DNA of 64,000 bases from Patescibacteria group bacterium (GTDB lineage Bacteria > Patescibacteriota > Microgenomatia > UM-FILTER-40-11). Below are positions 14,948 through 30,381 of the stretch, piece after piece (the first letter of the stretch is position 1; every line of letters starts with the position of its first letter). Location: positions 231,006 through 295,005 of the forward strand of contig DATKVM010000005.1 of assembly GCA_035530075.1 (NCBI GenBank). Reading direction: 5' to 3'. The translations under genes and the position numbers were made by a program. The notes below the pieces were generated by a model. The model was given only the letters and a program-made list of their open reading frames with translations, was not told where the DNA came from and did not search any database.

Positions 14948-15024
14948 GTCTAACAAATAAATCATTTGGTCATGTTGGCAGGAGAGAGAAGGGGTGGGAA
15001 AAGTTAGATTAAGAAAATACAGCC
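14948..15024 (+). repeat. Island repeat copy R1 (degenerate)
   Basis: '...ggcaggagagagaaggggtgggaaaagttagattaagaaaatacagcc' matches the right half of the consensus CAAGTTTAGACCTAATTGGTGGGCGAGGGGAGGGTTGGGAGAAGTTAGATTAAGAAAATTCAGCC. Confidence 0.6.
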
Positions 15025-15143
15025 ACGCAATGGAAAATACCAGAAATTATTTACGATGAAGAAATTGAGGCTAAAAGATTTGCCCCCCCCAAAGTTGCGA
15101 TTGTAAAATGATGCCTCTATAATCCCTCTCATTATGGTAGAAG

Positions 15144-15446
15144 GTGACAGGCGGTACCAATATGGGGAGCAGTTTTAGGAGATATTCAACAAAGAGGCTT
15201 GAAGCAATAGTGCGCCAAGCACAAGAAGTTCTGGATGAAAGAGACCTAACTAGAAATGGCCTGTTAATAGAAAGATTTCTGGAGATTCACAATCCAGCTA
15301 GGGGGTGTCAAGTCCAACAAAATAAAGAGCATAGACGGAGCGGTTTTTTCGATTGTGATGGTATTGAACACTCGGTTGAGGTGACTGGCTATTCTTGTCA
15401 AACTCACGGGACCAGTAGCGAAAGACGTTTTGGTGAAATTAATTAA
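15144..15446 (+). CDS. Hypothetical small protein
   Basis: 100-aa ORF inside the island. Confidence 0.3.
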   Translation: MTGGTNMGSSFRRYSTKRLEAIVRQAQEVLDERDLTRNGLLIERFLEIHNPARGCQVQQNKEHRRSGFFDCDGIEHSVEVTGYSCQTHGTSSERRFGEIN

Positions 15447-15477
15447 GCCGATCTCCAATCCTTATCCCTTCAAGTAG

Positions 15478-16374
15478 CTAAAGCATTCCGCCTTTTAACA
15501 GCCTGAACTCCTTTTTAGTTTCCCAGATATTTTTTAGTTGGTCAAAATTATCATCCGGTTTCTGCATTAACCTTGCTAGATTATCTATTTCACCTAATTG
15601 CTCCTCTGATAATTTGTCAAACTTACCAAAATGAGTTATTTGGGGAGTGTGGTGGTAAATAATTTCATCATTCATCAAGCAGTGGAAGTCATAAAAGAGT
15701 TCCCAGGAAATTGCGATTAATCCTCCGTTGCCGCCGGCATTCCAAAAGTGCTGGCCATCGATTTTACCGCTTCGTACTGCCAGCCAGGCATCAGGCGAAA
15801 AGTCAAAAGTTCCTTCCGGAATATCGTAAGGATCAAATTTTAAATACCCTTCGATACTCCCGTCAACGTCAATGGTTACCCACCTGGACTCTTTTTCATT
15901 CCAATATTGATTTAGCCAGTGGTCATCGCTTTTACCGCCCGGTAAGCCATCTACATTGAAGTAGGGAGAAAATCCCGAACGCACACGAGCCGGAATACCT
16001 TTTATCTTTAACAAAGAAGCCATTAAGATTGAGGTAGATCTACAAGTTAGGACTAACTTATTTTCCGCTTCTCTGTCTAGTACTAATCCTCTTGAATCCC
16101 TTCTAAACAGTTCCGCCAACATGGCGGAAGCGGTTATAAACACATCGTCTTCAGGTTGCCTGGTCCAGGGCACTCTGGTTGTGTCTCCATATCTTAAATC
16201 TGCGTTCGAACCGGTATTACCATTTTTCAAAGTCATTCGATGCATGAGTTGTTTTCTAACCAAGAGCCCGATTTCCCTAATATTGTCCGGTAAAGACTTT
16301 TGGAGAATGTCTTGGTAAAGACCCGGGTTGGTATACTGACTAAATTGAAGATAAAAACTTATTATTTTTTTCAT
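15478..16374 (-). CDS. Transglutaminase-like superfamily protein
   Basis: 298 aa. Putative Cys/His/Asp arrangement ('LTCRSTSILMASLL...', '...DDHWLNQYW...', 'IDVDGS'). Confidence 0.5.
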   Translation of the reverse strand: MKKIISFYLQFSQYTNPGLYQDILQKSLPDNIREIGLLVRKQLMHRMTLKNGNTGSNADLRYGDTTRVPWTRQPEDDVFITASAMLAELFRRDSRGLVLDREAENKLVLTCRSTSILMASLLKIKGIPARVRSGFSPYFNVDGLPGGKSDDHWLNQYWNEKESRWVTIDVDGSIEGYLKFDPYDIPEGTFDFSPDAWLAVRSGKIDGQHFWNAGGNGGLIAISWELFYDFHCLMNDEIIYHHTPQITHFGKFDKLSEEQLGEIDNLARLMQKPDDNFDQLKNIWETKKEFRLLKGGML

Positions 16375-16417
16375 CCACTCTCATTTTATCAAATTAAAGC
16401 AACATCTTTATTTTTGG

Positions 16418-16460
16418 TCAGATTAAAAAAATTCAGCCCCCATCCTGGATGAAGTTCGAA
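16418..16460 (+). repeat. Island repeat copy R2 (right-end fragment, ...AGATTAAAAAAATTCAGCCCCCATCCTGGATGAAGTTCGAAC)
   Basis: Near-identical to the right end of R4 (22391-22437). Confidence 0.6.
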
Positions 16461-16461
16461 C

Positions 16462-16767
16462 TTATTTTTTGGCTCCGAAGAAACCGAAGAATCCAAAAAA
16501 ACCAAAAAGTCCAGTGCTGCCCCCTAATCCCAATAAGCCAAACAATCCTATCCAGCCAAGCTTCCACAAATCCCTTGGTTTGCCCTTTCTAATATAATTG
16601 ATTGTATTTTGAACGACTGAAATCACAAATCCAAGAGCAAATATAAAGGTTAGAAGGAAAAATACTGGTTCTTCAATTTTGGAGACACCATAAATAGCGT
16701 TATGCAAAACAATAGAAAGTATGGTCAGCCCGAACAAAATATAGTTTCTTTTTGTTTGTTTTTCCAT
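16462..16767 (-). CDS. Small membrane protein with a Gly/Phe-rich tail (GLFGFFGFFGFFG)
   Basis: 101 aa and two TM helices. Last gene of the minus-strand operon. Confidence 0.4.
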   Translation of the reverse strand: MEKQTKRNYILFGLTILSIVLHNAIYGVSKIEEPVFFLLTFIFALGFVISVVQNTINYIRKGKPRDLWKLGWIGLFGLLGLGGSTGLFGFFGFFGFFGAKK

Positions 16768-16795
16768 ATTATTTATTCTACCAGAAAACTGTCTT

Positions 16796-17797
16796 CTAGG
16801 TATTTTTAATTAAACTCCAAGTGGCATATTCTTCAGGAGTTAAGGTCGGCTCTTTGGCGGATTTTTGGCGGTAAGACCGCTCGAAGTGGGGGACCAGAAT
16901 ATCTTTCTCATAGGATTTAATAATGACGGGATGAATATAGTAGGTGCGGCAGACTTTCTTGGTATTGCCAAGCTGGGTTGAGACTTCGGCCACCACTTCA
17001 GAGAGATTGTTTTTTAAATCCGCCTCGGAAAGCGCCTTGCCTTTTTTATACAGCCAGTCTCCGGCTAAAACGCTGCCGCCCCAGGTGCGAAAATCTTTAG
17101 CGGAAAAATCTGCTCCCGTATGAGTTTGCAAGTAATTGTTCACCTCGGCTGCGTCGACCACTTGCCGGTTATTATTTTCGTCTAAATACTGAAACACTTG
17201 ATAGCCGGGAAGGTCAATGCAGGCCTTAATCGTTCTGGCCACTCGGGGATGATTGACCCCCAGTTCATGAAAGACCCCGCTTTTACCTTCAAAGCTAAAG
17301 GTCATCGTATTGCCTTCAACCTCAATATGCTTTTTGCGCATGGTGGTTAGGCCGTAGGACTGGTTTTCTTCGGCGTAGGTTTGATTGCCCACCCGGATAA
17401 AAGTGTGCTCCAAAAGCCAGACGACCGTGGCAACGACGCGATTTTGAGTTAGAGAGTGTTCTCGCATATGGCCGCTGACGACTTCGCGCAGGGCGGGGAG
17501 CCGCTCGCCAAAAGCTACCATTTGGTCAAACTTTTTTTCTTGGTTGCGCTTAATCCACTCGGGGTGATAAATATATTGTTTGCGGCCGGCTGCGTCCACG
17601 CCAATCGCCTGAACATAATCGTCGGGGTCTGAGCTAACAACCACCTCGGTCCAGGCGGGGGGAATGGCCAACGCGGCTAAACGCTCGGCCGCCGTTTTGG
17701 AAACCGGCTTGCCTTTTTCATCGATAAACCCAAAGCCATTACCTCTCTTAACCCGCCGCCAAGGAAGTTCTGTATCTTTCCGATAATGAATTGTCAC
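16796..17797 (-). CDS. DNA topoisomerase IB (poxvirus/bacterial type)
   Basis: 'AIPPAWTEV...AIGVDAAGRKQYIYHPEW' and the C-terminal 'LGNTKKVCRTYYIHP' match bacterial TopIB motifs, including the catalytic Tyr region. Confidence 0.7.
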   Translation of the reverse strand: MTIHYRKDTELPWRRVKRGNGFGFIDEKGKPVSKTAAERLAALAIPPAWTEVVVSSDPDDYVQAIGVDAAGRKQYIYHPEWIKRNQEKKFDQMVAFGERLPALREVVSGHMREHSLTQNRVVATVVWLLEHTFIRVGNQTYAEENQSYGLTTMRKKHIEVEGNTMTFSFEGKSGVFHELGVNHPRVARTIKACIDLPGYQVFQYLDENNNRQVVDAAEVNNYLQTHTGADFSAKDFRTWGGSVLAGDWLYKKGKALSEADLKNNLSEVVAEVSTQLGNTKKVCRTYYIHPVIIKSYEKDILVPHFERSYRQKSAKEPTLTPEEYATWSLIKNT

Positions 17798-17835
17798 CAG
17801 TATATTGTAGCAAAACTAGAGGGTAGATAAAGAAA

Positions 17836-18465
17836 CTAACTTAACCATTTTGTAAGTTGTTGGCCGATTTTCGTCACCAAATCATGAGCACCAGATAAAT
17901 TAGCTGCAATACCAACCGCTGACCATGCCGCTTGGATAATTTTTTTTGTTGGATTGGGTTTAATTAGTTGGGCTTTAATCACCTCAATATCTCCAACAAG
18001 ATTTCTTTTTTCTTCATCAGATAACTGGGCTTCTTTAATGATGCCTATCAATTTGTCCAGATCGTTTATAGAACTTCCACTTGCCTGAGAGATAGTCCCA
18101 TATTGATGGCCCGAGACAAAGATCACATTTGCCCCTTCTTCAGCCTCAATTGTGACAGAAGATAAGGCTTTTTGGGAAAATTTCGAATCTTCAAATAACC
18201 GAATGCCTTTATTAGATATCCTTATTTCTTGAAACAAAATAGATTGTCCTGTTAGTTTCACCCGTTCATTCCTAGTGTCAATGTATTTCTCGCCAATCAA
18301 GTAATCAATATTATTCTTAATCCTAATTCTATCTAACTCTGCAGAGCGTAAATCGCCAATCACTTTTTCTGAAGTAGTCCACTGAGCCCTTGATTTGTTG
18401 AAGTCATAAAGATATCTAAGGATTTTTTCTTTTACTTCGTCTTCGGAAAGAGTATTCGAGTCCAT
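17836..18465 (-). CDS. Hypothetical protein (operon member)
   Basis: 209 aa. Stop/start 2 nt from the upstream gene. Confidence 0.4.
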   Translation of the reverse strand: MDSNTLSEDEVKEKILRYLYDFNKSRAQWTTSEKVIGDLRSAELDRIRIKNNIDYLIGEKYIDTRNERVKLTGQSILFQEIRISNKGIRLFEDSKFSQKALSSVTIEAEEGANVIFVSGHQYGTISQASGSSINDLDKLIGIIKEAQLSDEEKRNLVGDIEVIKAQLIKPNPTKKIIQAAWSAVGIAANLSGAHDLVTKIGQQLTKWLS

Positions 18466-18466
18466 A

Positions 18467-18880
18467 TTAAATCAAATCATTTTCTAAACCATACTTTATT
18501 GCTTTGAGCGAAGCTCGTGCACTTTCCAAATCCTCTTTATATGCCTCGGCGTCTCTTGCATCATTTCCTTCCGAATCCCCAATTGTGTAAACCCCAGATC
18601 TATAATCCAATCTCTCAAAATTCTGATAGTATTTGGAATTGGTAGTTATAAGGTTATCGAGAATCATTAATGTCTCTTCGCGCCACTGCCGAAGGAGATC
18701 GTAATCGACTTTTCCAAGTAGTTGGTCTATAAGGTCGATTTTTGAATCAAGTAGAGTTATCTTATCTTTTTTATCCATTTGTTTAATTTCTTTGAGTGAG
18801 CTTTTGCTCCGCGAGCCTAAGATTAATATAACCTTTGACTTCACTCCAATTATACTCGCTTTACAAGATTTGAGGTACAT
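18467..18880 (-). CDS. Hypothetical protein (operon member; the real start may be the internal Met, giving ~100 aa)
   Basis: 137-aa ORF. Predicted coiled-coil content. Confidence 0.35.
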   Translation of the reverse strand: MYLKSCKASIIGVKSKVILILGSRSKSSLKEIKQMDKKDKITLLDSKIDLIDQLLGKVDYDLLRQWREETLMILDNLITTNSKYYQNFERLDYRSGVYTIGDSEGNDARDAEAYKEDLESARASLKAIKYGLENDLI

Positions 18881-18925
18881 CGGAGAGATGAGGCAAAGGC
18901 GGGAAGAAATTAAAAAAATTAGCGC

Positions 18926-20347
18926 TCATTCATCTTTAATTCCAACATAAAACCTGCCGGTGGCGACACAAACACCCTTATTTATGGCATAGCAATCAAC
19001 CCAATGCATACCTGGGTATTGGGTGTGTTCTTCTTTAAAGTCTGAGTCTCCCTCGCAAAAATGAAATTCGTTTCCTCTCCAACCGCCTATGCGTGCCATT
19101 TCTAATGCCGGAAGTCCATTATTAACCACTAACCACCTTATTTCATCATATACAAGTCCATTAATATCTGGTGAAAAATATAAGGAATATTCCTTGCTAA
19201 GATATTCTCCTGAAGTCATTGACCTTGTGCCATTAAGTACCTCAAGTTGAAACTTAGAAAATGGTTTTGGAATATTCTTGAAAGAAGGAGGATTTTTAAC
19301 CTTTTCTGAGCGCTTGACCTTGCAGGAAACGTTAATTTTTGAGGGGTTAGGAGCAAAAGGCCATGGCGGATTAGCAATGAGACTCTCCCTCAAAGCAGAA
19401 TATACTTCTTCTCTTTCTTCCTCTGGCATGTTTATAAATTCACCTAATGCTTTGGAGGCAAAATCCACGGCTAATTTTCTTTGCACTCCCGTTTTATCTT
19501 CATTCAAATAACTGTCCACAAAAATATTGCTCTCTGCCATATCTGGTATTGCTGGTTTCTCTAGCCATTGCCCCATATTCTTAAGGAAATAACAAACTGC
19601 ATCATAAAAATTAATACCTTTATTCTGGGCAAAGATGTTTGTGATAACTAGCTCAAGATGAAAGGATTTCAGCTCAAACTCGGTTAATCCGGCATTACAC
19701 GACTTTTTCCAAACTTTAGCAAACTTGACGGATTTTCTATAACTAGGATTTGAATTTAAATTTAAAGCTTGTTTGATGTAGCCTTTGGGGTCAGACAAAA
19801 TCCAGGGAATTTTCCCCCCACTAACGCTATATTTCTTGGCCCAATTGCCCCGGTGCATTTTCTGGATTTCTGGAACCAAATAAATATCGTCTCCATACCT
19901 GTTTTTTCTTCCAGATTTTAAAGCGGGAACAACATCTATGGAAAAACCCTTTTCTTTTGGAAAAGCGATGCTAACTGAGTGTGTTTGGTCTGCGTCAATT
20001 TCTACTTCTTCTCCTATTTTACGATAACCTTCGGCCAAAATTGAAGCTAAGCTTTGTAATGGGTCTTTAACATCAAAATAGAAGGGTTCACCTTGCTTAG
20101 CGCTTGAAAAAAGCTTACTTCCGGTTACTTGAAAAGCTTCAGGTAATACCCATATTATGTCAAGGTCGTGAACGGGGGTTACTGAAGTTTCTCTAACATA
20201 TGAACCGCTTTGAAAAATTTCATTCCCAGGTAATATCTCTTGAAGGTCGCTGTAATGTTTTGAAATAACTTCTCTTTCCTCCGCCGGGGGCGATAAATAC
20301 TTGCGACAAAACTCCTCTAAGGTGGTATTAACTTCGTCTTGGTTCAT
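18926..20347 (-). CDS. cGAS/DncV-like nucleotidyltransferase (CD-NTase/SMODS-type Pol-beta NTase) with a ~300-aa C-terminal domain of unknown function
   Basis: 'QSGSYVRETSVTPVHDLDIIWVLP' fits GS-x9-[DE]hDh. The third acidic residue lies in 'FSIDVVPAL' about 75 residues later. This spacing and context match CD-NTase, OAS and SMODS cores. The gene overlaps the upstream TM-protein gene by 20 nt. Confidence 0.55.
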   Translation of the reverse strand: MNQDEVNTTLEEFCRKYLSPPAEEREVISKHYSDLQEILPGNEIFQSGSYVRETSVTPVHDLDIIWVLPEAFQVTGSKLFSSAKQGEPFYFDVKDPLQSLASILAEGYRKIGEEVEIDADQTHSVSIAFPKEKGFSIDVVPALKSGRKNRYGDDIYLVPEIQKMHRGNWAKKYSVSGGKIPWILSDPKGYIKQALNLNSNPSYRKSVKFAKVWKKSCNAGLTEFELKSFHLELVITNIFAQNKGINFYDAVCYFLKNMGQWLEKPAIPDMAESNIFVDSYLNEDKTGVQRKLAVDFASKALGEFINMPEEEREEVYSALRESLIANPPWPFAPNPSKINVSCKVKRSEKVKNPPSFKNIPKPFSKFQLEVLNGTRSMTSGEYLSKEYSLYFSPDINGLVYDEIRWLVVNNGLPALEMARIGGWRGNEFHFCEGDSDFKEEHTQYPGMHWVDCYAINKGVCVATGRFYVGIKDE

Positions 20348-20918
20348 ATCGGTACGAGGACATAATGGAAAAAATATCGCTCACTAAGCGAAGTGGCATG
20401 CTTGATAGAGCATACCATTTGTAATCTTTAATTATTTCCTTATGTTTATCGTCAAGTTGGTAGCCTATTTCAAAGGTATAAATAATTAAGGGTTTATCGG
20501 CTCGCTTGACCATTTGAAAAAAATCGTCAAAGTCATTCATTCCCCTATGGTATCCCAGTATTATAATGCCAGCTTCATCAATATCTTTCTGGTCAATAGC
20601 ATGGAAATCGGTTACAACTCCTTTAGAGACATTAAAATAGCCTGAACTCTTAAGAACGCCAAGTTCCCGTTCCATGTCTTTTGTTCCGCCATCAGTTCTT
20701 TTTCCCCCGGGCGGACAAAAAATAAAAACCTTTTTGCCTAAATTCTTCCCAAGTCTCCAAAAAACTTTGGCCGAACGACTGAAGATAACAATATACCCCA
20801 CAAAGACCAATAAAAGACCGCCAGCGGCTTTTAAAATATCCCAGAGGCTAAGGATGGTAGCAACATTGTTGATGTTCGTATCGGTTTCCATTTTGCCTGT
20901 CAAATAAGTGCTTGACAT
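20328..20918 (-). CDS. N-terminally TM-anchored protein with a Rossmann-like alpha/beta domain (possibly TIR-like or SLOG-like); candidate effector
   Basis: TM helix 'LLLVFVGYIVIFS', then 'KKVFIFCPPGGKRTDGG...IIILGYHRG...KPLIIYTFE', which alternates beta and alpha elements. First gene of the operon, separated from divergent lexA by 30 bp. Confidence 0.4.
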   Translation of the reverse strand: MSSTYLTGKMETDTNINNVATILSLWDILKAAGGLLLVFVGYIVIFSRSAKVFWRLGKNLGKKVFIFCPPGGKRTDGGTKDMERELGVLKSSGYFNVSKGVVTDFHAIDQKDIDEAGIIILGYHRGMNDFDDFFQMVKRADKPLIIYTFEIGYQLDDKHKEIIKDYKWYALSSMPLRLVSDIFSIMSSYRYEPRRS

Positions 20919-20948
20919 TATTGTAGATATACCATAAACTTACTATAG

Positions 20949-21545
20949 ATGCAAGAGGTAAAACCATTAACAGAGCGCCAAAAACTTGTTCTTAGTTTCA
21001 TAGCCACTTTCTTAAAGGAAAAAGGGTTTTCTCCTTCACTTAAAGAAATTGCCCGTTTTATTGAAACCGATAACCTCAGTTCGGCCCAATATTTTGTTAA
21101 AGAACTTGAGGAGAAGGGATATTTAAGGAAGAATGCCAATAAATCAAGGGGCATTGCTCCAATTCCTATTCGGTCTTCCATCCCCTTACTTGGATATATT
21201 GCGGCAGGGAAACCCATTGACCCCATGGAGAACCCGGAGGAGATTTCTGTTCCCTCAAGTATTACGATTGATACTCGTTATCCTCATTATGCCCTCAAGG
21301 TTAAAGGCGATAGCATGATTGATATGGGAATCTTAAACGGCGATATCGTTATAATTAAACATCAACTAACTGCGGATAATGGGGATGTCGTAGTCGCCGT
21401 TACAGAACACGGAGCAACACTGAAAATCCTGAAAAAAAGTGGCAGTAAAGTTCTTTTAGAACCGAGGAATAAAAACTATCAAACTATCTATCCTAAACAA
21501 TTGGAAATCAGAGGGAAATTTGTTGGGCTAATAAGAGGAGAATGA
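20949..21545 (+). CDS. lexA: LexA repressor
   Basis: N-terminal winged-helix domain. Ala-Gly cleavage site 'IAAGKP', catalytic Ser in 'KGDSMID' and Lys in 'GATLKIL'. 198 aa. Confidence 0.85.
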   Translation: MQEVKPLTERQKLVLSFIATFLKEKGFSPSLKEIARFIETDNLSSAQYFVKELEEKGYLRKNANKSRGIAPIPIRSSIPLLGYIAAGKPIDPMENPEEISVPSSITIDTRYPHYALKVKGDSMIDMGILNGDIVIIKHQLTADNGDVVVAVTEHGATLKILKKSGSKVLLEPRNKNYQTIYPKQLEIRGKFVGLIRGE

Positions 21546-21661
21546 GTTGGTTTTACCAGTCTTACCCAGTGGTAAGTATAGTGAAAGCCCATTTGTTCCC
21601 ACGCGTGGACTCCCTTCGGTTCCCTCAGGGCAAGCCCTTAGGAAACTCAGGGTAAACTTCA

Positions 21662-21780
21662 CGCCTTCCAGACCTAACAAGCCTGCCTGCCGGTGGGCAA
21701 GTTTAGACCTAATTGTTGGGCGAGGGGGTGAAAGAAGTTAGATTAAGAAAATTTAGCTTGCTCTGAAACGACTTTCGAAC
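21662..21780 (+). repeat. Island repeat copy R3 (extended form with a CCTGCCTGCCGG left arm)
   Basis: '...ccttccagacctaacaagcctgcctgccggtgggcaagtttagacctaattgttgggcgagggggtgaaagaagttagattaagaaaatttagc...gactttcgaac'. Confidence 0.6.
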
Positions 21781-21781
21781 T

Positions 21782-22303
21782 TTAAACATTTCGGGCTTGT
21801 AACTTTGGTAATAGCGCCTTGTATCGTTTAATTTTGGTTTGTTTAGTTAACATGGCGTATCTGGGCGAAGGAGATGGTAGGCAAATCAACTCTATCTTAG
21901 TGTATTGTTGGATTATATCCTTGAACTGTCTTTTAAACATTTTTTCTACATGGCGACTGGTGAAAAAGATTTTCTCGATAGTATGGTTTTTGAGGATAGT
22001 TGTGACCCCATTAGTGTTATAGACGATATTAAATAAGTTTATATCTAAATTACTATTTTTCTTTCTTTCGCAGGATAAGATTATATCTACTAGTGCCATC
22101 TTTAGTTGTACAAAAAGCCCTTGCTGCCTTTCTTTAGTACTGAAGTCGGAACTATAAACTTCTTCCATGATTGGCCAGAACTGATTGCGACCGTTTGCAT
22201 AAAACCAGTCGTAAGGACTTGAGGGTTTAGTTACAAAACTTCCCAGCATTAAATACTTTACTTTCTCAGGAACAAAGTCTCCAAACGGATGCGTTTCAAC
22301 CAT
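21782..22303 (-). CDS. UDG-superfamily DNA glycosylase (MUG/TDG family-2-like)
   Basis: 'MLGSFVTKPSSPYDWFYANGRNQFW' parallels the MUG/TDG motif GINPG...NHFW. The C-terminal 'LPSPSPRYA' parallels the TDG motif MPSSSAR. Confidence 0.5.
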   Translation of the reverse strand: MVETHPFGDFVPEKVKYLMLGSFVTKPSSPYDWFYANGRNQFWPIMEEVYSSDFSTKERQQGLFVQLKMALVDIILSCERKKNSNLDINLFNIVYNTNGVTTILKNHTIEKIFFTSRHVEKMFKRQFKDIIQQYTKIELICLPSPSPRYAMLTKQTKIKRYKALLPKLQARNV

Positions 22304-22340
22304 GGGAATATTATACTGTAGTTCGAGTCCACGCCGGGTT

Positions 22341-22437: not shown

Positions 22438-22445
22438 AGTTTAGC

Positions 22446-23048: not shown

Positions 23049-23090
23049 AAACTAAAAAGCCCAATTTTAAGGGCTTTCTGAAGCTAGCTC

Positions 23091-23208: not shown

Positions 23209-23382
23209 TCTCCAAAGACAACTACCAGTCGTCGCTGGGCAGTTCTCTTAACATATCTGAACGACCCGACTCAAATCCTTCTTGCCGGCCAAAGAAAAAA
23301 TGTTTCCATGACTCAACAATATTTCCAATATTTCCACTCCCGGAGTGGAATAGTTCTCGCACTGAAGCTAAACAACGCTCCG

Positions 23383-23628
23383 CTAGCGATGAGAAGGCTT
23401 TTCTAAACCCAGTGCGACTTGACGAGCGCAATTATCTCTGTGACCCAACTCCTGGTCGCCTCTGCACCAAGGGCACCTTGGATAAACATTAGCCTCATTC
23501 ACATATGTCATGACGAACTCGACTTGCTGTAGTGCCCCTCGCAACAATGTTATTTGTTCTTCTGGAGACATCGATATCTCTCCCCCCGGTGAACCGCCTT
23601 CTTTTTCCCTTTTAACCATCCTTTCCAC
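23383..23628 (-). CDS. Hypothetical small Cys-containing protein (CPWC)
   Basis: 81-aa ORF in an otherwise ORF-poor 0.5-kb stretch between R5 and R6. Coding status is uncertain. Confidence 0.25.
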   Translation of the reverse strand: MERMVKREKEGGSPGGEISMSPEEQITLLRGALQQVEFVMTYVNEANVYPRCPWCRGDQELGHRDNCARQVALGLEKPSHR

Positions 23629-23702
23629 CTCCCTCTAGGCAGAGATTAAGAACAATTCATCCTAAATCTACTCTTTCTGCTTATTATTGTCAAAAAATTC
23701 CT

Positions 23703-23760
23703 TTTTAGACCCAATTGGTGGGCGAGGGGAGGGTTGGAAGAGGTTAGATTAGAAATTCAA
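23703..23760 (+). repeat. Island repeat copy R6
   Basis: 'tttagacccaattggtgggcgaggggagggttggaagaggttagattagaaattcaa'. Confidence 0.65.
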
Positions 23761-23895
23761 CTCCTCAATCTTGAGATTATTATAGTAACAATCGAGAAAG
23801 TATTAAAGGCTTTTGAGAACGTTATCCAAATGGAGTTGGTAAGGGTCAGGTGGGAAGAAATCCAAAGATTTCAAATTAAATCCACTTCTGTTTAA

Positions 23896-24660
23896 TCAAG
23901 GTTTCCTTGCGACAATAACTACTCTATGTCTTGGGAATTTAATTCCCTTCTTTGTCCTAAACTTCGCCACATATTTCTCTAAGAATTTCATATCTTTCTC
24001 GGAATCAAAATCTTCAAATATGGGAACTCCTTGTAAAAATAGGTCTAAATCTTCATAAGAAGCATAGTATTCGTCATAGAAATAATCTTGAGCAAAGATG
24101 ATTTCAAACCCTGCGTCTTTAAGCTCCCATTTATCCTCTTCTAGTCTCGAAGCATTCCACTCTTTATATCCTTGACCACGACCAAATATTTCTTTAATTG
24201 ATTGACAGTCTTTTTCTCCAATGTTTATACCAACAAAGTAACCACCTGATTTTAATAGTCTATGAAACTCGGAAAAAGGTGTCGGGCCGCGACGACTAAA
24301 TATTAAATCAAAAGATTTATCGGAAAATGATGTTTTGCTGGCATCCTGCAGTTCAAAAATAACATTTTTGACTTGTAAAATATTTTGCTTTTGCCTGGCA
24401 ATTTTTAATAATCCTTTGGATATGTCAATTCCTGCGATACTTAAAAAATATTTTGCTATTTGGAAAGCAAACTTTCCGTCACCGCATCCAGCGTCGAGAG
24501 CAATTTTGTTTTTATTTGCCAAACCAAGTAGTTTTTTCTTAAAAATTTTCTCAGGATCTCCATTCGGATATTCGGAAAGGTGTTCTACATGACTTTTACC
24601 AAAGGCGTATCCACCGAATTTCTTAGCCACTTTATCGTAGAAGTTTGATGACATAAGCAT
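23896..24660 (-). CDS. Class I SAM-dependent methyltransferase
   Basis: Motif I 'ALDAGCGDGKFAFQ' and post-I acidic 'GIDIS'. 254 aa. Confidence 0.65.
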   Translation of the reverse strand: MLMSSNFYDKVAKKFGGYAFGKSHVEHLSEYPNGDPEKIFKKKLLGLANKNKIALDAGCGDGKFAFQIAKYFLSIAGIDISKGLLKIARQKQNILQVKNVIFELQDASKTSFSDKSFDLIFSRRGPTPFSEFHRLLKSGGYFVGINIGEKDCQSIKEIFGRGQGYKEWNASRLEEDKWELKDAGFEIIFAQDYFYDEYYASYEDLDLFLQGVPIFEDFDSEKDMKFLEKYVAKFRTKKGIKFPRHRVVIVARKP

Positions 24661-24789
24661 ATTTTACTACTCTTTTAGACCTCACGTCTGACTGTTTTTA
24701 CCCCGCTATTGGATTCAAAACATACGATTTAGTTTTCTAACACAGACTTTTTCTAAGTGGCTTTAGAAAAATAGTCTTTTATAGCTTTG

Positions 24790-24869
24790 CACCTTCCAGG
24801 CCTAACAAGTTTAGACCTAATTGGTGGGCGAGGGGAGAGTTGGGAAAAGTTAGATTAAGAAAATTCAGT
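24790..24869 (+). repeat. Island repeat copy R7 (near-consensus)
   Basis: 'caccttccaggcctaacaagtttagacctaattggtgggcgaggggagagttgggaaaagttagattaagaaaattcag'. Confidence 0.7.
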
Positions 24870-25011
24870 TCACACTGAGTCCTTCGATAGACTCAGGGTA
24901 AATTTATCGAAGTGCCCGCCGGATGGAACGATTTTTTAACCTTAAGCTGGGTTGAGTCCGTCAAGTTTCATCCTATTGAACTATCGCAACTTCCTTCTAT
25001 AAAATAAGTAT

Positions 25012-25545
25012 TTATTTTTTTAATTCCTTAGTAGTACTTCCTTGCTCCAATAATCGGAAAATATCTAAGACGTAATCCGGCCAAATCCATTCAATGAATT
25101 TAACTCCGTTATTTTCTTCAACCGCTTGGATTATCTTAGAAAGAGGAACATTGTCTCGGGCAAGTCCTTGTTTTTCTAAATCAAGAATTTCTTCCAGTGT
25201 GAACCACTCAACAGTCTTTATTTCTTCCTCCAATCTATTGCCGAGCCTTTCAAAACCTTCTCCGTAAAAGACAAAACTTAAAAGATAAATCGTGTTATTT
25301 AAAGTTCCCTGGACAACCGTGCCTAGACGAACAATGTTAGTTTTACCTCCCGTTTCTTCAACCAATTCTCGTTTGGCTGCTTCCGCGACACTCTCTTCTT
25401 TATTTACCTCGCCATGGGGAAAAGTCCACTTGCCCTTGGAGTGAGTATTGATATGACCATAAACTTTATCGGTCGCTTCCTGAACCAGTAGATATTTACC
25501 ATTATCTTTGACCAGGCAATTAGCCAAAATTATTGGGCGTATCAT
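25012..25545 (-). CDS. Nudix hydrolase
   Basis: Nudix box 'GEVNKEESVAEAAKRELVEETGG'. 177 aa. Confidence 0.7.
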   Translation of the reverse strand: MIRPIILANCLVKDNGKYLLVQEATDKVYGHINTHSKGKWTFPHGEVNKEESVAEAAKRELVEETGGKTNIVRLGTVVQGTLNNTIYLLSFVFYGEGFERLGNRLEEEIKTVEWFTLEEILDLEKQGLARDNVPLSKIIQAVEENNGVKFIEWIWPDYVLDIFRLLEQGSTTKELKK

Positions 25546-25675
25546 TTAAGTAGATTATAGCAAATGTTCGAATCCTGTCTGGGGTATAAAGTTATTAGGA
25601 TAATATTTGAGGCTAAAAAAATTTGCTCCTCTATCTAGACACTATACGAACTAGAGAGTGGGTTAGTAGTTTTTT

Positions 25676-26485
25676 ATGCTAAAAATTATCACTTCATCTA
25701 ATAAAATGGGGTTAAAGAGCATTAGTTTATTATATAATGTACCTATGCTTGATGAAGAGGAAGCCGTTGTAATTACAGTAGAAGAGGAAGATTGGCAAAC
25801 TCGATATTTTAAAGAAAAAGGTAAGCCTACACAAGAAAGAACAGTAATTATTCAAGGACATGTAATAAATATTGTTAATTACGATCACGAATTTGTTTTT
25901 ACAGGAACTCATTTAAAAGAGCTCCAAGAATTTGTTACAAGAGCTAAAGAACTTAATCCTAATTTATTAAGAAACTTTAAAAAAATAGTTTTTGGTGATA
26001 CCCAACCTCCCAGTAGATACAATGACGAAGAAAAACATCCTTTTAATGGGACGACACTTATCTCAGAAGATGGCGTGTGGTTTCATAAACGAGGTCAAAG
26101 AACTGATATTAGACATCGCACAGGTGATACTTCTAATTTTCAAGGAACACTAGCTCATGAAGTCATACACCTAAGCGAGAATCAAGTAGAACATCGGTGG
26201 AGAAAGGATTTTGAATGGCACTACTGTTCTGAATTTCAAAATGAATGGGAACAAACAGAAAATAAGGGTATATGGAGAAATAAGACAAATGGACGGAAGG
26301 CATTGGAAGGTCAATTTACCAAACATCCTGAGCGGTGCGTTACAGATTATGGAAGAATGACATGGGATGATGATTATGCTGATAGTGGTGTAGTGGCAGT
26401 ATTTAATCCTCAAAGACTACAAACTATTTGCCCTCAAAAATTAGAAGTAATTAGACAAGTAGGAAAAGAACCTGAAGTTGCTTAA
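25676..26485 (+). CDS. Hypothetical protein with an HExxH motif (possible zincin-like metallopeptidase); noticeably AT-rich
   Basis: 'LAHEVIHLSE' in a 269-aa ORF. Codon usage is more AT-rich than the flanking genes. Confidence 0.35.
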   Translation: MLKIITSSNKMGLKSISLLYNVPMLDEEEAVVITVEEEDWQTRYFKEKGKPTQERTVIIQGHVINIVNYDHEFVFTGTHLKELQEFVTRAKELNPNLLRNFKKIVFGDTQPPSRYNDEEKHPFNGTTLISEDGVWFHKRGQRTDIRHRTGDTSNFQGTLAHEVIHLSENQVEHRWRKDFEWHYCSEFQNEWEQTENKGIWRNKTNGRKALEGQFTKHPERCVTDYGRMTWDDDYADSGVVAVFNPQRLQTICPQKLEVIRQVGKEPEVA

Positions 26486-26520
26486 CATATCAATTAGCTT
26501 GATGTGAGGTTTTGTTTTCT

Positions 26521-26556
26521 CCCCCGTGTGGGCTCGAACCACGAACCAATCGCTTA
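26521..26556 (-). other. att-like partial duplicate of the tRNA-Asn(GUU) 3' half (T-arm and acceptor)
   Basis: 'cccccgtgtgggctcgaaccacgaaccaatcgctta' is nearly identical to 31773-31808 of the intact tRNA-Asn ('cccccgcgtggattcgaaccacgaaccgatcgctta'). The match ends at the anticodon stem. Confidence 0.55.
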
Positions 26557-26559
26557 TGG

Positions 26560-26635
26560 TTTCACACCTCCCAAGTGTAACAGCCTGCCTACTGGTAGAC
26601 AAGTTTAGACCTAATTGGTGGGCGAAGGGAGGAAC
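26560..26635 (+). repeat. Island repeat copy R8 (truncated at its right end by the GNAT gene)
   Basis: 'ttcacacctcccaagtgtaacagcctgcctactggtagacaagtttagacctaattggtgggcgaagggagg'. Confidence 0.65.
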
Positions 26636-26641
26636 AAAGAA

Positions 26642-27106
26642 TTACTTCTTAGTTAATTTTTTGATAAAGTGCACCAAAGTTGAATGCTCTGTAAATCCTA
26701 ACTTCTTATGAAATTCAATACTTTCCTTATTCCAGTCCCAAGTGTCTGAACCCATTTCTTTACACCCCTTTGTCTTTGCCCATTCTTCAGCCTTCCTGAT
26801 TAATTCTTTGGCAATTCCTCTTTTGCGATATTTCTCTTTAACGTACAAGCCCTCAAGGTAACCAACAGGGTACTCATTTGCGCCTGGAATATGTTCTTCC
26901 TTAATTGAAGCGCTCACAAAAGCTACAAGAAGATGATCTTCTTTGCCGACAAATACGATATCTCTATCCGATCGCAAGATTCGGTTAAATTCTTCTTTTA
27001 TTTCCTTTTCCGAATGTTTTGGCCAAAGCAACAATCCCATTTTAACTAACTCTTCGAAATCTTCGTTGTTTGCCTTGACAATATTCATCATCTTTGATTC
27101 TATCAA
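26642..27106 (-). CDS. GNAT family N-acetyltransferase
   Basis: Acetyl-CoA binding region 'VKEKYRKRGIAKELIRKAEEWAKTKG'. 154 aa. Confidence 0.7.
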   Translation of the reverse strand: MIESKMMNIVKANNEDFEELVKMGLLLWPKHSEKEIKEEFNRILRSDRDIVFVGKEDHLLVAFVSASIKEEHIPGANEYPVGYLEGLYVKEKYRKRGIAKELIRKAEEWAKTKGCKEMGSDTWDWNKESIEFHKKLGFTEHSTLVHFIKKLTKK

Positions 27107-27127
27107 GAATCGCCTGTTCTTCCAAAA

Positions 27128-27176
27128 AAGGTGGGCGAGGGGAGAATTGAGAGAAGGTGGATTAAGAAAATTCAGC
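27128..27176 (+). repeat. Island repeat copy R9 (right half)
   Basis: 'ggtgggcgaggggagaattgagagaaggtggattaagaaaattcagccc'. Confidence 0.65.
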
Positions 27177-27265
27177 CCCGGTGGTAGGATTCGAACCTAC
27201 AACCTTTCACTAACAGGGAGCCGCGCTCCCTCCGCCAGTTGGCGGATCACTACGCCGGAATATCC
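27176..27265 (-). other. tRNA-like fragment (T-arm GTAGG-TTCGAAT-CCTAC plus an Asn-like anticodon loop rc CTGTTAG); no complete cloverleaf
   Basis: The reverse complement contains 'aggttgtaggttcgaatcctaccaccgg'. I could not find a matching 5' acceptor strand within 90 nt, so this is probably a pseudo-tRNA or att remnant. Confidence 0.35.
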
Positions 27266-27397
27266 CCATAATAGCAAGTTTAAGGCCAAAGGGCCAGGGT
27301 AAATTTGCTAGGCAAAAAAGAACTCTAGCCTGGTCTTAAACTGACTCTCTTGGTATCGCCAGAAAAAAGGCGTATGCTAAAGTGAAGGAGAATACAT

Positions 27398-28894
27398 ATG
27401 GAAGAACAAGAGAATGCCCCCGAGATATTGAGTAGTGATGTTCAGCCAACGGTGCCACTGCCTTCAAACAAGCCTGTTCTCAAGCCAAGTTTACCCTTAG
27501 TAATTCTTATAATAGTTTTTTTGATTTCCTTAATCACTCTTGCCGTCTTTTTTCTAAGTAAGCGCTTGGATTTTTTTAATACGCGAATAGCTATTCCCAC
27601 AAATTCTTCCCAGGGAAGTCCCTCTCCTTCAGTTCCCCAAGAACTGGATATTCAGAAAGATATTCAAAGCCGTGAGCATTTGAATGACCAGAAAAACATT
27701 AGCCCTGGCGATATTGTTTCCTCAGGGTTTATTGACCCTTCACTTTTTACTAAAAAAACATCCTCGTCTTCGGTACTAGAGTTAGTTAAAAAAGCCCATG
27801 CTCAAGAAGTAAAACAGGTCCCGGCTTTATTTTATGTTAAAAACAAAACCCAAATTGCGGTATTGGACTTATTTAGTAACCAGGAATATCTATTGCTTGA
27901 CTTGAAAGATTTTAGCAGCATTTCTGTTAACAGCGGCACCGTAATCTCTAAACAATATTTTGTCAATAAGTCCAAACAAGTCGTGTTTCAATTAATGGAA
28001 AAGCTAGTGGATGATAAATATAAAACCTCTTTTCAGGTTTATGACATTAGGTCTCAGAGTTTGAAAGAAGTTGTTTCAACCACCGGCGGAAGCGGGGACC
28101 CGGCTAATTGGAATGGTTTTAGTATTTCGCCGGATGAACATTCCCTTTTCATACTTTATGTTAATCCCTACGAGAGCGATCCCTTTGCTGATGTTGCCAA
28201 TAAGGTAGTGGAGAATCCAGGTTATTTTGATAATACTTATTTTTTCTTTAATCTTGATGATGGTTCTTTAAAAAAATTTAAATTGGACGAAAGACTGACG
28301 GGTATGATTAACTTTCAATGGTCTTCAGATAGCAACTCTGTTCTTCTTTTGTACAGCCGCACTTACGAAACTCCATCCTCTTTAGTTCTGTTCTCAGTTT
28401 CCCCGTTGGCTGTCAAAGAAATTCTTTTTCAAGGATCTGGCTCCGAAAGAGATCTGGTAAAGGGTCAATATTTTCCTGACCTTAAAAAGATATTTTACAT
28501 TTCGACAGGGTCAAATAAAGAAGAAAGTACTTTTTCGGAAAGGCACTTTGGTTATCTGAACCTCGCCAGCCAAAATTTTAATGACGTTATTGAGCCTGGC
28601 TATGAAGTGACCCAGTTTGTGTTTGATTTTAATAAGGGTTTTGTGGTTAATACTCAGGTCCATAGCGAAAGCCAAACCAGCAGCAAAGCTCTTAATTATT
28701 ACGATTTAAGTACTGGTAAGGTAACTAAAATTATCGAAGGGGCATTTAATATTCTTGGTTTTAATGGAGATTATCGCCATTTGTTAGTGAGTAGTTTGAA
28801 CGGATCAAGGTCGGATTTATATGACCTGGATATTGAAACTGGACAAACCAACTATCTTACAACAACCCAAGCTGCTATACCTTATCAGTTTTAA
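27398..28894 (+). CDS. Hypothetical secreted or membrane-anchored protein (N-terminal TM helix, beta-rich C-terminus)
   Basis: 498 aa. TM helix 'LPLVILIIVFLISLITLAVFFL'. No catalytic motif seen. Confidence 0.4.
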   Translation: MEEQENAPEILSSDVQPTVPLPSNKPVLKPSLPLVILIIVFLISLITLAVFFLSKRLDFFNTRIAIPTNSSQGSPSPSVPQELDIQKDIQSREHLNDQKNISPGDIVSSGFIDPSLFTKKTSSSSVLELVKKAHAQEVKQVPALFYVKNKTQIAVLDLFSNQEYLLLDLKDFSSISVNSGTVISKQYFVNKSKQVVFQLMEKLVDDKYKTSFQVYDIRSQSLKEVVSTTGGSGDPANWNGFSISPDEHSLFILYVNPYESDPFADVANKVVENPGYFDNTYFFFNLDDGSLKKFKLDERLTGMINFQWSSDSNSVLLLYSRTYETPSSLVLFSVSPLAVKEILFQGSGSERDLVKGQYFPDLKKIFYISTGSNKEESTFSERHFGYLNLASQNFNDVIEPGYEVTQFVFDFNKGFVVNTQVHSESQTSSKALNYYDLSTGKVTKIIEGAFNILGFNGDYRHLLVSSLNGSRSDLYDLDIETGQTNYLTTTQAAIPYQF

Positions 28895-29000
28895 GCCGGC
28901 ATAACTACACAAAAAAGCTGATAGTCAACTATGGCTTTGTAATCCTGGTATTAATCCAACTAACATTATACCAAGCATTATCAAGGCTTTCCAAAATTCC

Positions 29001-29057
29001 GTGGGGTAGAGTAGGCGAAAGAAAGATTAAAGAAGTTAAATTAAGAAAATTCAGCCC
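29001..29057 (+). repeat. Island repeat copy R10 (degenerate)
   Basis: 'gtggggtagagtaggcgaaagaaagattaaagaagttaaattaagaaaattcagccc'. Confidence 0.5.
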
Positions 29058-29165
29058 AAGAACCGGACACCATATTATTTCCACTCCCGGAGTGGAATAA
29101 CATAACCTCACACCTTCCAGGGGCAATCTGAATTTAAAAATCAGGGAGAAGTGACCTCAAGATAG

Positions 29166-29468
29166 TTAAGGGACTTGGGGACTTTCTTCATCCATCATCT
29201 CAGCCGCAAATGAAAGTATTGACCTTCTAGAAGCATTATCACCTTCCGGCAAATTCTGAAGAACGGCAATAAATCCCAGTAGATTTTTCCTAAATCTTTC
29301 AGCAATCTGAGCGTTGGTATAAGTACCTATTTCTAGCTGATCTGCCGGAACCTCCGGTAGCCCTGCCGCTTTAAAAGCTGCCTCAACAAAGGCTGACCAT
29401 AAAGTTTCTGGATCTATTAGATCTCTTTCTCCTGAGGCCATATGCCTACAAAATATATTAAAAACCAA
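29166..29468 (-). CDS. Hypothetical protein
   Basis: 100-aa ORF between R10 and R11. Confidence 0.3.
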   Translation of the reverse strand: MVFNIFCRHMASGERDLIDPETLWSAFVEAAFKAAGLPEVPADQLEIGTYTNAQIAERFRKNLLGFIAVLQNLPEGDNASRRSILSFAAEMMDEESPQVP

Positions 29469-29520
29469 AGCTTGTCAACTATAGGCAAAAGCCCTATGGT
29501 CCTGGTATTGCTGGTTCGTC

Positions 29521-29614
29521 CCTGCCTGCCGGGGTACAACCCAGGCTTCACACCTCAGGTGTAACAGGTAATGGATTTAGGCCTAATTGGCGGGTGAGGG
29601 GAGGATTGGGAGCT
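29521..29614 (+). repeat. Island repeat copy R11 (left-arm-rich form)
   Basis: 'cctgcctgccggggtacaacccaggcttcacacctcaggtgtaacaggtaatggatttaggcctaattggcgggtgaggggaggattgggag'. Confidence 0.6.
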
Positions 29615-29623
29615 GAACATTAG

Positions 29624-30301
29624 TTACCAGATAAAAGGGACGAGACGGTACTTTACCCGTTTACAATAGTCGTTGTAACCTGGTAAATCACGTAGCAATA
29701 CTTCTTCCTCGTTCAGTGCTCGGATAATAACGACTCCACATATGGGTAGAAAAGCCACTAAAGCCCAATAAGAACCAAGCGCCAGAGGAGTAAATAAAAA
29801 AAGAGGGATAACGCCCGCGTACATCGGGTGTCTGACAAGAGCGTAAGGACCGGTATCGATGACCTTTTGTCCTTCAAAAACCTCGACCGTCCGCCCAGCA
29901 AAGGCATTTTCTTTAAAAGCAAGAAATACCAGATAATAAGCAAAAACAATTATGATGTTGGAAACAATTACTAACCATAAAGGGACGTTGGACCAACCAA
30001 AACGATAGTCCAGTCCCGGAATTAAAAAACCTAAAAAGAAAATTATACCTGTTAATTTAATAATTAAATCCTGTTTGGCTTCTTTCTCTTTAAACATCAT
30101 CCTCCGCTTCAAAAACGCTGGAGACTTTTGGAGAAAATAGAGCGAAAGAAAGAGTGAGCAAGAAAGGATTATGGCGATAAAAATCCACCCCTGCCAATAC
30201 CTAAGGGAGCCTGCAGGCAAAAAAAGCATTGACGCCAGGACTACAAATGCCAAAGGATACAACAGAAGAATTTTACTTCTCATTTTTGCCATTTTATTCA
30301 T
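29624..30301 (-). CDS. Isoprenylcysteine carboxyl methyltransferase (ICMT)/phospholipid methyltransferase family membrane protein
   Basis: Multi-TM protein with 'ALVRHPMYAGVIPLFLF' (RHPxY motif). 225 aa. Confidence 0.6.
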   Translation of the reverse strand: MNKMAKMRSKILLLYPLAFVVLASMLFLPAGSLRYWQGWIFIAIILSCSLFLSLYFLQKSPAFLKRRMMFKEKEAKQDLIIKLTGIIFFLGFLIPGLDYRFGWSNVPLWLVIVSNIIIVFAYYLVFLAFKENAFAGRTVEVFEGQKVIDTGPYALVRHPMYAGVIPLFLFTPLALGSYWALVAFLPICGVVIIRALNEEEVLLRDLPGYNDYCKRVKYRLVPFIW

Positions 30302-30321
30302 ATTTATATTATATAACGCTT

Positions 30322-30381
30322 CGTAATCCTAGGATTAATCTTGCCGGTCGGCAGGTTGGGATTAGATTAAGAAAATTCAGC
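30322..30381 (+). repeat. Island repeat copy R12
   Basis: 'cgtaatcctaggattaatcttgccggtcggcaggttgggattagattaagaaaattcagc'. Confidence 0.6.

Follow-up and report, generated by a model that had tools for sequence, protein, structure and literature searches.

A modular same-strand repeat separates cassette genes in a tRNA-Asn-bounded island of a Patescibacteria genome

We analysed a 64,000-nucleotide stretch of the genome of a Patescibacteria group bacterium (assembly GCA_035530075.1, contig DATKVM010000005.1, positions 231,006–295,005), referred to below as the window, in whose coordinates positions are given unless another contig is named. Within it, 12 copies of a repeat separate a series of mostly single genes, and an intact tRNA-Asn gene lies at the edge of the resulting island. 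With moderate confidence, we propose that this island was built by repeated site-specific integration at tRNA-Asn, and that the repeat is a composite relic of the integration site which now delimits cassettes. The island would begin at about 14.9 kb, or perhaps as early as 12.9 kb, and end at 31.8 kb.

The repeat unit is read here on the minus strand, which is the gene strand. In its full form the order is stop codon, F, E, D, C hairpin, B, sometimes a second hairpin and A, and then the next gene. Module F (AAGTTCGAACTTCGTCCAKGATGGGG) stands directly after the stop codon of the upstream gene and is followed by the AT-rich module E (GCTGAATTTTCTTAATCTAAC) and the C-rich module D (TTCTCCCAACCCTCCCCTCGCCCACCAATTAGGTCTAAACTTG), the latter being the complement of the G-rich core by which the repeat was first noticed. 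Module C is a hairpin that varies in length and sequence, for example GCCTAC/GTAGGC or GCCTGCC/GGCAGGC; module B reads CTGTTACACTTGGAAGGTGTGAAA; and module A (GATTAATCCTAGGATTACGRAGC) is present in some copies only. Behind a tRNA-Asn end, the E pattern is GGAG and then CTGAATTT.TCTTAATCT.AC. The unit measures about 130–200 nt, with roughly 100 nt in the D-C-B extension, and the individual copies are truncated from it in nested fashion.

The first-pass annotation had reported at least 12 G-rich repeats in one orientation, and nhmmer profiles built from the copies recovered all 12 listed positions with E-values between 1e-25 and 0.06; all copies share one strand and lie within 15.5 kb (14.95–30.4 kb). 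The profile matches lie at 14975–15024, 16417–16441, 21654–21759, 22338–22416, 23116–23223, 23699–23764, 24780–24873, 26555–26640, 27110–27179, 29016–29057, 29542–29617 and 30361–30381. The 24-nt G-rich core occurs six times at no more than three mismatches, against no occurrence in 100 shuffles. A gap-free repeat search returned the same families together with the arms (D1–D4 and D6), and a module-wise Hamming scan agrees; the left and right arms noted earlier are accordingly real repeat modules (families D3, D4 and D6). The copies are heterogeneous: the G-rich core (up to three mismatches) is found in seven and the AT-rich E module in eight, and the core is degenerate in the copies at 14.95 and 29.0 kb. 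A conserved G-quadruplex was considered and rejected, four G-runs being kept in only 1–2 of seven cores. The G+C content is 0.35–0.43 in the island and 0.42–0.49 outside, and the GC skew is reversed in the island.

All copies lie on the minus strand. Copy 1 (14948–15024) has E at 15003–15023 with degenerate D and B, and copy 2 (16417–16461) consists only of E (16417–16437) and F (16437–16461), directly after a stop codon. Copy 3 (21597–21790) comprises a tRNA-Asn 3′ fragment (21597–21612), B (21658–21678), a C hairpin, D, E (21737–21757) and an F-like sequence. In copy 4 (22318–22436), an inverted tRNA-Asn 3′ fragment on the plus strand (22318–22338) is joined by D (22352–22382), E (22392–22412) and F (22412–22436). 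Copy 5 (23087–23223) holds A (23087–23109), a long C hairpin (23110–23161), D (23162–23192) and a degenerate E, while copy 6 (23699–23764) has D (23703–23733) and a variant E. Copy 7 (24780–24935) contains B (24786–24806), D (24809–24839), E (24849–24869), an upstream hairpin and an F variant; copy 8 (26557–26640) contains B (26561–26581), a C hairpin and D (26603–26633); and copy 9 (27110–27176) contains a D core (27130–27146) and E (27156–27176). Copy 10 (28934–29127) has an A-like sequence (28934–28956), a degenerate D, E (29035–29055), the hairpin TTCCACTCCCGGAGTGGAA (29076–29099) and B (29107–29127). Copy 11 (29490–29617) has an A-like sequence, a C hairpin, a B-like sequence and D (29575–29605), and in copy 12 (30318–30381) the core is deleted, leaving A (30318–30340), a short hairpin and E (30361–30381). 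As a separate observation, a 9-bp perfect hairpin, TTCCACTCC-C-GGAGTGGAA, occurs twice between island genes (23322–23345 and 29076–29099) within a 24-nt identical stretch, outside the main unit.

In the remaining 48 kb of the window, no credible profile match to the unit was found. When the D pattern was searched in 185,579 species genomes, only two 23-nt matches were obtained, both attributable to chance, and among 241 million metagenome records it returned five contigs, one a chance match and four from the window's own population. These four are a copy of the window (L014) and three contigs (L015–L017) with other cassettes between the same units. The repeat family is small, private to the window's population and no generic intergenic element, although direct scanning did not extend to the remainder of the organism's own genome. 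The uniform density regardless of gene content that would mark such an element was not seen, the unit being limited to the island within the window.

The intact tRNA-Asn gene (GTT anticodon; 31771–31843, minus strand) was called by ARAGORN and scores 65 bits against the Rfam tRNA model. It is the anchor of the island and its integration target. Running into it on the plus strand is a pseudogene of a large serine recombinase (LSR; 31345–31810), which retains 46 N-terminal codons ended by a stop (31345–31485) and 108 C-terminal codons (31484–31810) and lacks the middle part. The N-terminus begins MIKAVILARVSTLKQ and gives a weak Resolvase match. The C-terminus ends ...FYASRQVQLPRVDSNHEPIA, and the translations show its last 13 codons to be antisense of the tRNA-Asn 3′ half. 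Database searches yield 161 relatives of the C-terminal segment, a few of which have the zinc ribbon of recombinases (PF13408); all 120 among the matches listed are short (84–268 aa). Where a source is named, the relatives come from Patescibacteria, also termed the candidate phyla radiation (CPR), except for one metagenome-assembled genome labelled Marinimicrobia and one labelled ‘bacterium’. Neither relatives of the LSR nor the D pattern were found in viral contigs. Many of the relatives are truncated near the same point of the tail ITESYYEEKRKEY...FYASRQ.WLP (about the last 100 residues), just before ITESYYE.

No present-day activity is expected of this decayed LSR copy. A small gene of the HTH_17 (excisionase/MerR) type lies 0.5 kb from it (30663–30848, plus strand; Pfam PF12728, E = 9e-17) and is likely an accessory gene of the last integrated element. 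Across 1.7–63 kb of the window, the only further recombinase encoded is a type IB topoisomerase within the island, and no open reading frame matches Phage_integrase, be it IntI or another tyrosine recombinase; the reported lack of an integron integrase holds for this range. In the window, rpoD lies at the island end far from tRNA-Asn. Two 269-aa genes, one after tRNA-Asn and one after its displaced fragment, were considered as paralogues and found to be unrelated. A Rad52/Rad22-family single-strand annealing protein is encoded at 33684–34145, 1.8 kb past the tRNA-Asn end of the island, and may be linked with recombination at the repeats.

Fragments of the same tRNA are found further inside the island. 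One is a copy of the 3′ 38 nt, from the anticodon loop to the 3′ end (26519–26556, minus strand; 89% identical), which lies in direct orientation 5.2 kb inside the island and directly abuts module B of copy 8. The fragment at 21597–21612 matches at 15 of 16 positions and stands about 45 nt from B, and the inverted fragment at 22318–22338 matches at 19 of 21 and stands beside a B stub; for each, none of 1000 shuffles was as good. In these three copies (26.5, 22.3 and 21.6 kb), a tRNA-Asn 3′ fragment is thus found downstream of B or of a B remnant. A second, decayed tRNA-Asn of the type seen in another Patescibacteria contig, L035 (type 2), was recognised by alignment to that contig at 27176–27259 on the minus strand; ARAGORN and Rfam made no call there. 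Its 3′ half is intact and its 5′ part disrupted, it matches the L035 tRNA-Asn 3′ end at 27 of 29 positions, and E-D follows directly. The first-pass annotation had not noticed the tRNA-Asn gene, the LSR pseudogene or the tRNA fragments. The view of the repeat as an orphan without recombinase context finds no support: the array abuts tRNA-Asn and a decayed LSR and holds displaced tRNA-Asn fragments.

The cassette genes lie between the repeat copies at 15144–30301, mostly on the minus strand, and several belong to no family. Their products, identified by Pfam or PADLOC, include a transglutaminase-like protein, a type IB topoisomerase, a cyclase and transmembrane effector of a cyclic oligonucleotide-based antiphage signalling system (CBASS), LexA, two methyltransferases, Nudix, GNAT and ICMT/PEMT proteins. 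Most of the names first assigned from the sequence were therefore retained, namely LexA, the nucleotidyltransferase (a SMODS cyclase), the methyltransferases, Nudix, GNAT and ICMT/PEMT, with weak support for the transglutaminase-like assignment; the ‘UDG-like’ gene (21782–22303) and the ‘HD-like’ gene (22446–23048) found no Pfam or PDB sequence support. The description of single genes or one operon between copies is also accurate in part, since most compartments hold a single gene while the segment at 16.4–21.6 kb carries about seven.

That segment includes a CBASS-type pair (18926–20918, minus strand), in which a SMODS/AGS_C oligonucleotide cyclase (PADLOC PDLC00785, E = 7e-72) is overlapped by an upstream gene matching a transmembrane effector (E = 2e-24); a divergent lexA gene (20949–21545) adjoins the pair. 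The type IB topoisomerase (16796–17797, minus strand) matches Topoisom_I (E = 3e-37) together with Top1B_N_bact. In strain contig L005, the topoisomerase has a different N-terminus (352 versus 333 aa), and homology to the window breaks at 17809. A role for this enzyme as the recombinase, acting at CCTT motifs in B, was dropped as speculation only. Between the CBASS cyclase gene and the next gene lies a weak A-like sequence (18806–18828, minus strand; 5 of 23 positions mismatched), which hints that the apparent operon may itself be built of older cassettes.

Several cassettes have a TAnAAT (–10-type) box 6–8 nt before the ATG, and in three copies the F/E junction scores as a terminator-like hairpin with a U-tract on the gene strand. 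As each such gene would carry its own –10 box before the start codon and a terminator-like hairpin after the stop codon, the cassettes look transcriptionally autonomous, unlike integron cassettes. A consensus scan found no consistent promoter site inside the unit, and the number of promoter-like matches in the region equals that in shuffles.

Cassette content differs among co-occurring strains (L022, L029 and L015), a possibility raised at the outset, and the breaks fall inside the repeat unit. Contig L022 is 99.4% identical to the window over 24668–29606 and departs from it inside the D module of copy 11, at 29606; between that point and an intact tRNA-Asn of its own, it has three genes that differ from those of the window, and the LSR remnant is missing. 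The GNAT 3′ end and its D module recur at a second array position in the same contig. Contig L029 tracks the window to 22395, inside E of copy 4, and then enters a different cassette, and L015 matches only from 24706 to about 24935 (copy 7) before other cassettes follow. Judged by reading translations only, L015–L017 carry cassettes for an LD-carboxypeptidase-like product and a PEP-utilising-domain protein, besides unknown genes. Of the three strain junctions that were mapped, two are located at the F/E boundary and the third where the D core ends. As all three contigs diverge from the window inside units, it is there that cassettes are replaced; the strain contigs yielded no precise empty site. 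Contig L020 ends exactly at the tRNA-Asn 3′ end, and several other contigs stop just before the island.

Island DNA is also more similar between genomes than the core genes beside it. In L022, the 99.4% identity (4870–9807 of that contig) stands against only 87% for the flanking core gene (1–1148). In L035, whose core genes are about 75% identical to those of the window, the LSR remnant is 90% identical (527–866), compared with about 75% for rpoD (942–1766). This large difference points to recent exchange of island segments between diverged lineages.

Parts of the unit can be traced to other Patescibacteria genomes. Contig L032 has no other DNA similarity to the window, and in it E follows immediately after an intact tRNA-Asn (GGGGGAG and then CTGAATTTGTCTTAATCTGACC) and is itself followed by a gene start. 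The 8 kb behind that tRNA contain eight or more fragments with GGAGC at their end, all in one orientation and mostly placed directly before a small gene. For each of the window modules E, F and A, none of 200 shuffles equalled the match to the L032 island. E matches the L032 tRNA-Asn trailer, and A matches a 16/16 block within the island. F is matched best by the LSR remnant of L032, at its 3′ end, and this end itself matches a tRNA-Asn 3′ half (p = 0.001). That three modules of the unit recur at tRNA-Asn in an unrelated genome is a further point against the view of the repeat as an orphan. Nothing corresponding to D, C or B is present in the islands of L032 or L034.

The association of tRNA-Asn with LSR ends is seen repeatedly. 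In L035 the order is rpoD, 47 nt, and a tRNA-Asn overlapped by the LSR end. In L042, a 780-kb contig, tRNA-Asn lies 2 kb from rpoD-dnaG with two LSR C-terminal remnants that are 96% alike, and L043 has three tRNA-Asn-like ends in direct orientation with LSR remnants. In L034, the LSR end overlaps the tRNA-Asn 3′ half, and Resolvase and Recombinase domains precede the LSR segment. Because these four contigs combine tRNA-Asn or its fragments with LSR ends, accretion at tRNA-Asn by this LSR family is recurrent in Patescibacteria, and in L035 and L042 it occurs beside rpoD-dnaG. A further feature of L034 (10340–10690) is an interruption of about 250 nt in the anticodon loop of its tRNA-Asn: the recombinase end overlaps the 3′ half, and the 5′ half comes some way behind. 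The interruption may represent an intron, a small insertion or an att junction left unresolved.

We infer from this context that the units originated by integration. At its start on the gene strand, each unit would hold the decayed 3′ end of tRNA-Asn (F), and in one copy a decayed tRNA-Asn gene. E, the sequence that natively trails tRNA-Asn, would come next, and then a lineage-specific extension of roughly 100 nt made up of D, the variable C hairpin and B. A cassette would consist of an att fragment, the conserved arm, its own promoter, a gene and a terminator-like hairpin. We propose that an incoming circle carrying a mimic of the tRNA 3′ half and the conserved arm recombines with tRNA-Asn and pushes older cassettes inward. 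The periodic order tRNA-like fragment, E, D, (C), B, promoter, gene and stop would arise because every circle brings the mimic and the arm and recombines at the same gene. The last arrival would be the LSR-bearing element beside tRNA-Asn, with its other end at the junction of B and the displaced fragment at 26.5 kb. An LSR may have been the acting enzyme. Because the units are long direct repeats, they could now permit loss, gain and exchange of cassettes between strains, either by homologous recombination or by a recombinase supplied in trans.

Several observations weigh against this account. Simple serial integration duplicates the att core only, and here a block of roughly 100 nt has been copied at least eight times; it has to be assumed that each incoming cassette carries the block. 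The intact tRNA-Asn of the window is followed by the LSR gene and not by E-D, and E is likewise missing behind the displaced fragment at 26519. The window contains no intact recombinase. Compared with the tRNA directly, F gives a weak match (p about 0.05), and derivation of A from the tRNA was rejected as not significant. D-C-B, the best conserved part, matches tRNA no better than chance on either strand and is absent from the other islands. Two specific derivations, of the D core as an inverted tRNA acceptor end and of B from the anticodon loop, were likewise rejected as no better than shuffles. As D-C-B is conserved better than the tRNA-derived parts, it may, on a less probable reading, serve as the recombination arm by which cassettes lacking an integrase are mobilised in trans. 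Finally, no two of the three strain junctions coincide within the unit, one lying before F, one in E and one where the D core ends, and for this reason they demonstrate neither a fixed crossover nor plain homologous recombination. The attL-like junctions of the window, L035 and L032 also disagree on the crossover position.

The alternative that fares best is an active platform that resembles an integron without being one, in which F-E-D-C-B is a dedicated site where a trans-acting recombinase, of the serine family or another enzyme encoded elsewhere, could take out and insert single-gene circles at any unit, and the tRNA-Asn end serves as attI. The array is indeed periodic, with one unit per cassette in one orientation, its cassettes vary between strains, and the position of two of the three junctions at the F/E boundary, as well as the second array position of the GNAT 3′ end with its D module, would fit such a site. 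The unit is conserved far better than the flanking decayed tRNA pieces, which suggests selection or homogenisation, and on direct reading motifs of the TCTAAC/GTTAG type recur three times in it. However, the array has no intact recombinase in or beside it, the junction positions are not identical, many units are truncated beyond what a functional site would tolerate, and no circular junction or excision product was observed. LSRs, moreover, normally require distinct attP and attB sites, not identical ones. We therefore regard this explanation as unlikely for the island. A broader proposition, that Patescibacteria possess an integron-analogous cassette-capture platform of their own, with tRNA-Asn as the dock, a serine recombinase or an unknown enzyme, and the roughly 130-nt unit as the site, is put forward tentatively and with low confidence. 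On that proposition, cassettes would bring their own promoter and terminator, the D-C-B arm may make integrase-less single-gene circles mobilisable in trans, and the truncated LSR ends found beside tRNA-Asn across the phylum may be footprints of the same system.

Doubtful, in our view, is a regulatory or structural intergenic element of the REP/BIME/BOX kind, acting as terminator, insulator or small RNA between accessory genes that are expressed independently, spread within the island by homologous recombination and lying near tRNA relics incidentally. The hairpin with U-tract at the F/E junction of three copies would suit such a role, as would the modular build with optional hairpins known from BOX and BIME. 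On direct reading, the gene strand of the unit has much C and little G, as a Rho-loading region does, and every one-sided change in the B/D stem preserves G-U pairing on that strand. The RNA evidence is nevertheless unfavourable. Rfam gave no match, whether at the gathering score or with E relaxed to 5; the consensus structure is weak, at –5.9 kcal/mol, and RNAalifold gave 13 pairs with no compensatory change. Fold z-scores range from –2.8 to +1.5, only 23080–23225 on the minus strand, with its long C hairpin, lying clearly below shuffles (3/200). A structured RNA was rejected on the missing Rfam match and covariation. The absence of the unit from the other 48 kb of the window also speaks against this explanation, as does the fact that, in another genome, E, F and A are associated with tRNA-Asn and with LSR ends.

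The first-pass annotation had offered an integron-like array or an organisation driven by miniature inverted-repeat transposable elements (MITEs). The cassette-like character stands, same-orientation repeats separating genes mostly on one strand, and the MITE half finds no support. Repeated insertion of a non-autonomous transposon, MITE or insertion-sequence-derived, into intergenic sites of the island is very improbable: although the copies are short, non-coding and variable in length and have internal hairpins, they show no terminal inverted repeats or target-site duplications (terminal pairing occurs only in one copy flanked by inverted tRNA fragments), they form a 15.5-kb cluster in one orientation with nested truncations rather than complete elements, no transposase lies nearby, and no copies were found in viral contigs or species genomes.

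A classical integron array without integrase (a cluster of attC sites lacking integron-integrases, CALIN) is scarcely credible, for although the cassettes are mostly co-oriented and direct reading of the gene strand finds fits to RYYYAAC (ATCTAAC) and GTTRRRY (GTTAGGC), the roughly 45 nt between these boxes are C-rich and not self-complementary, single-stranded DNA folds of four units on both strands formed no R″-L″/L′-R′ stem, with seven of eight no better than shuffles (z –1.5 to +1.5) and the eighth (23080–23225, minus strand, z = –2.8) reflecting the long C hairpin only, the sole palindrome is 21 nt and without L boxes, IntI or another tyrosine recombinase is missing from 1.7–63 kb, and the cassettes have their own predicted promoters rather than being promoterless. 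The earlier statements that the repeat is no attC-type palindrome and that the array is not CRISPR are both upheld, the first by the folds and by the inability of the sequence between the boxes to pair, the second by gene-bearing spacings of 0.5–7.4 kb versus 25–50-nt spacers.

Comparison with described systems places the island in a known type, a tRNA-anchored island formed by serine-recombinase accretion, and this is its best reading; what is unusual is the long, partly tRNA-derived unit, the single-gene compartments with their seemingly self-contained transcription and the CPR host. In staphylococcal cassette chromosome (SCC) elements, LSRs insert cassettes at the 3′ end of a conserved gene, giving tandem arrays with direct repeats and many compartments without recombinase; the repeats are core sites of about 18 nt in rlmH and the compartments are multi-kb. 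The LSR remnant and tRNA-derived direct repeats seen here recall composite and pseudo-SCC elements, an example of which is PMC10581047, but the target is tRNA-Asn, the repeat is about 130–200 nt long, and compartments hold single genes. With integrons and CALINs the island shares mostly co-oriented single-gene cassettes, a repeat of 60–150 nt and strain-variable content, and it differs from them in having no IntI, no attC structure, cassettes with predicted promoters and a repeat that derives in part from a tRNA integration site. The BIME/REP elements of E. coli and the BOX elements of pneumococcus are modular, with optional hairpins, intergenic and dispersed over the genome in both orientations. 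The present repeat is equally modular, intergenic and variable in composition, yet it is confined to one island and one strand with tRNA-Asn and recombinase relics.

Islands in tRNA genes (tDNA islands) are recognised by the Islander principle, which uses displaced target fragments, including those in tandem arrays (PMC4383910). The island described here likewise has an intact tRNA at one end, an adjoining integrase gene (decayed), direct displaced 3′ fragments, accessory content and a lower G+C than its flanks. It departs from the pattern in that the decayed recombinase is a serine and not a tyrosine enzyme, the unit extends about 100–130 nt beyond the tRNA-derived part, and the compartments, mostly of a single gene, measure 0.4–1.5 kb. 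In the tycheposon islands of Prochlorococcus, new elements enter at a tRNA and push older ones inward, leaving partial tRNAs, fragmented integrases and cargo-only remnants (bioRxiv 10.1101/2020.12.28.424599). The proposed inward accretion at tRNA-Asn and the small gene sets by which coexisting strains differ are similar, whereas phylum and recombinase family are different, no replication or hallmark tycheposon genes are present, and D-C-B has no described counterpart.

The genomes of CPR bacteria are tiny, and how they acquire accessory genes is poorly understood. At this locus, a strain-variable hotspot at tRNA-Asn, single genes are swapped between co-occurring strains, among them genes for CBASS, methyltransferases, Nudix and GNAT proteins and cell-envelope enzymes. 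A related hotspot occurs in four further Patescibacteria genomes, two of which have it beside rpoD-dnaG; this suggests that genes move through the phylum by a common route. If the conserved module of roughly 100 nt were a recombination arm with its own enzyme, it would represent a second, independently evolved cassette platform. The repeat also explains why assemblies of this population break here, and it can serve as a marker for recovering the flexible gene pool.

Two observations concern other parts of the window. A cluster of six tRNA genes (5585–9365; four Ser, two Arg) adjoins the tmRNA gene and contains a partial tRNA-Ser-like 3′ fragment (6731–6762). In strain contig L006, 113 nt (243–357) replace window positions 8217–8681, which hold tRNA-Ser-CGA and most of tRNA-Arg-CCG, and the cluster may thus be a second, small variable site. 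In a NifU-like gene (50497–52011), a LAGLIDADG domain lies between the NifU_N halves; because it splits NifU_N, this arrangement suggests that the gene carries an intein.

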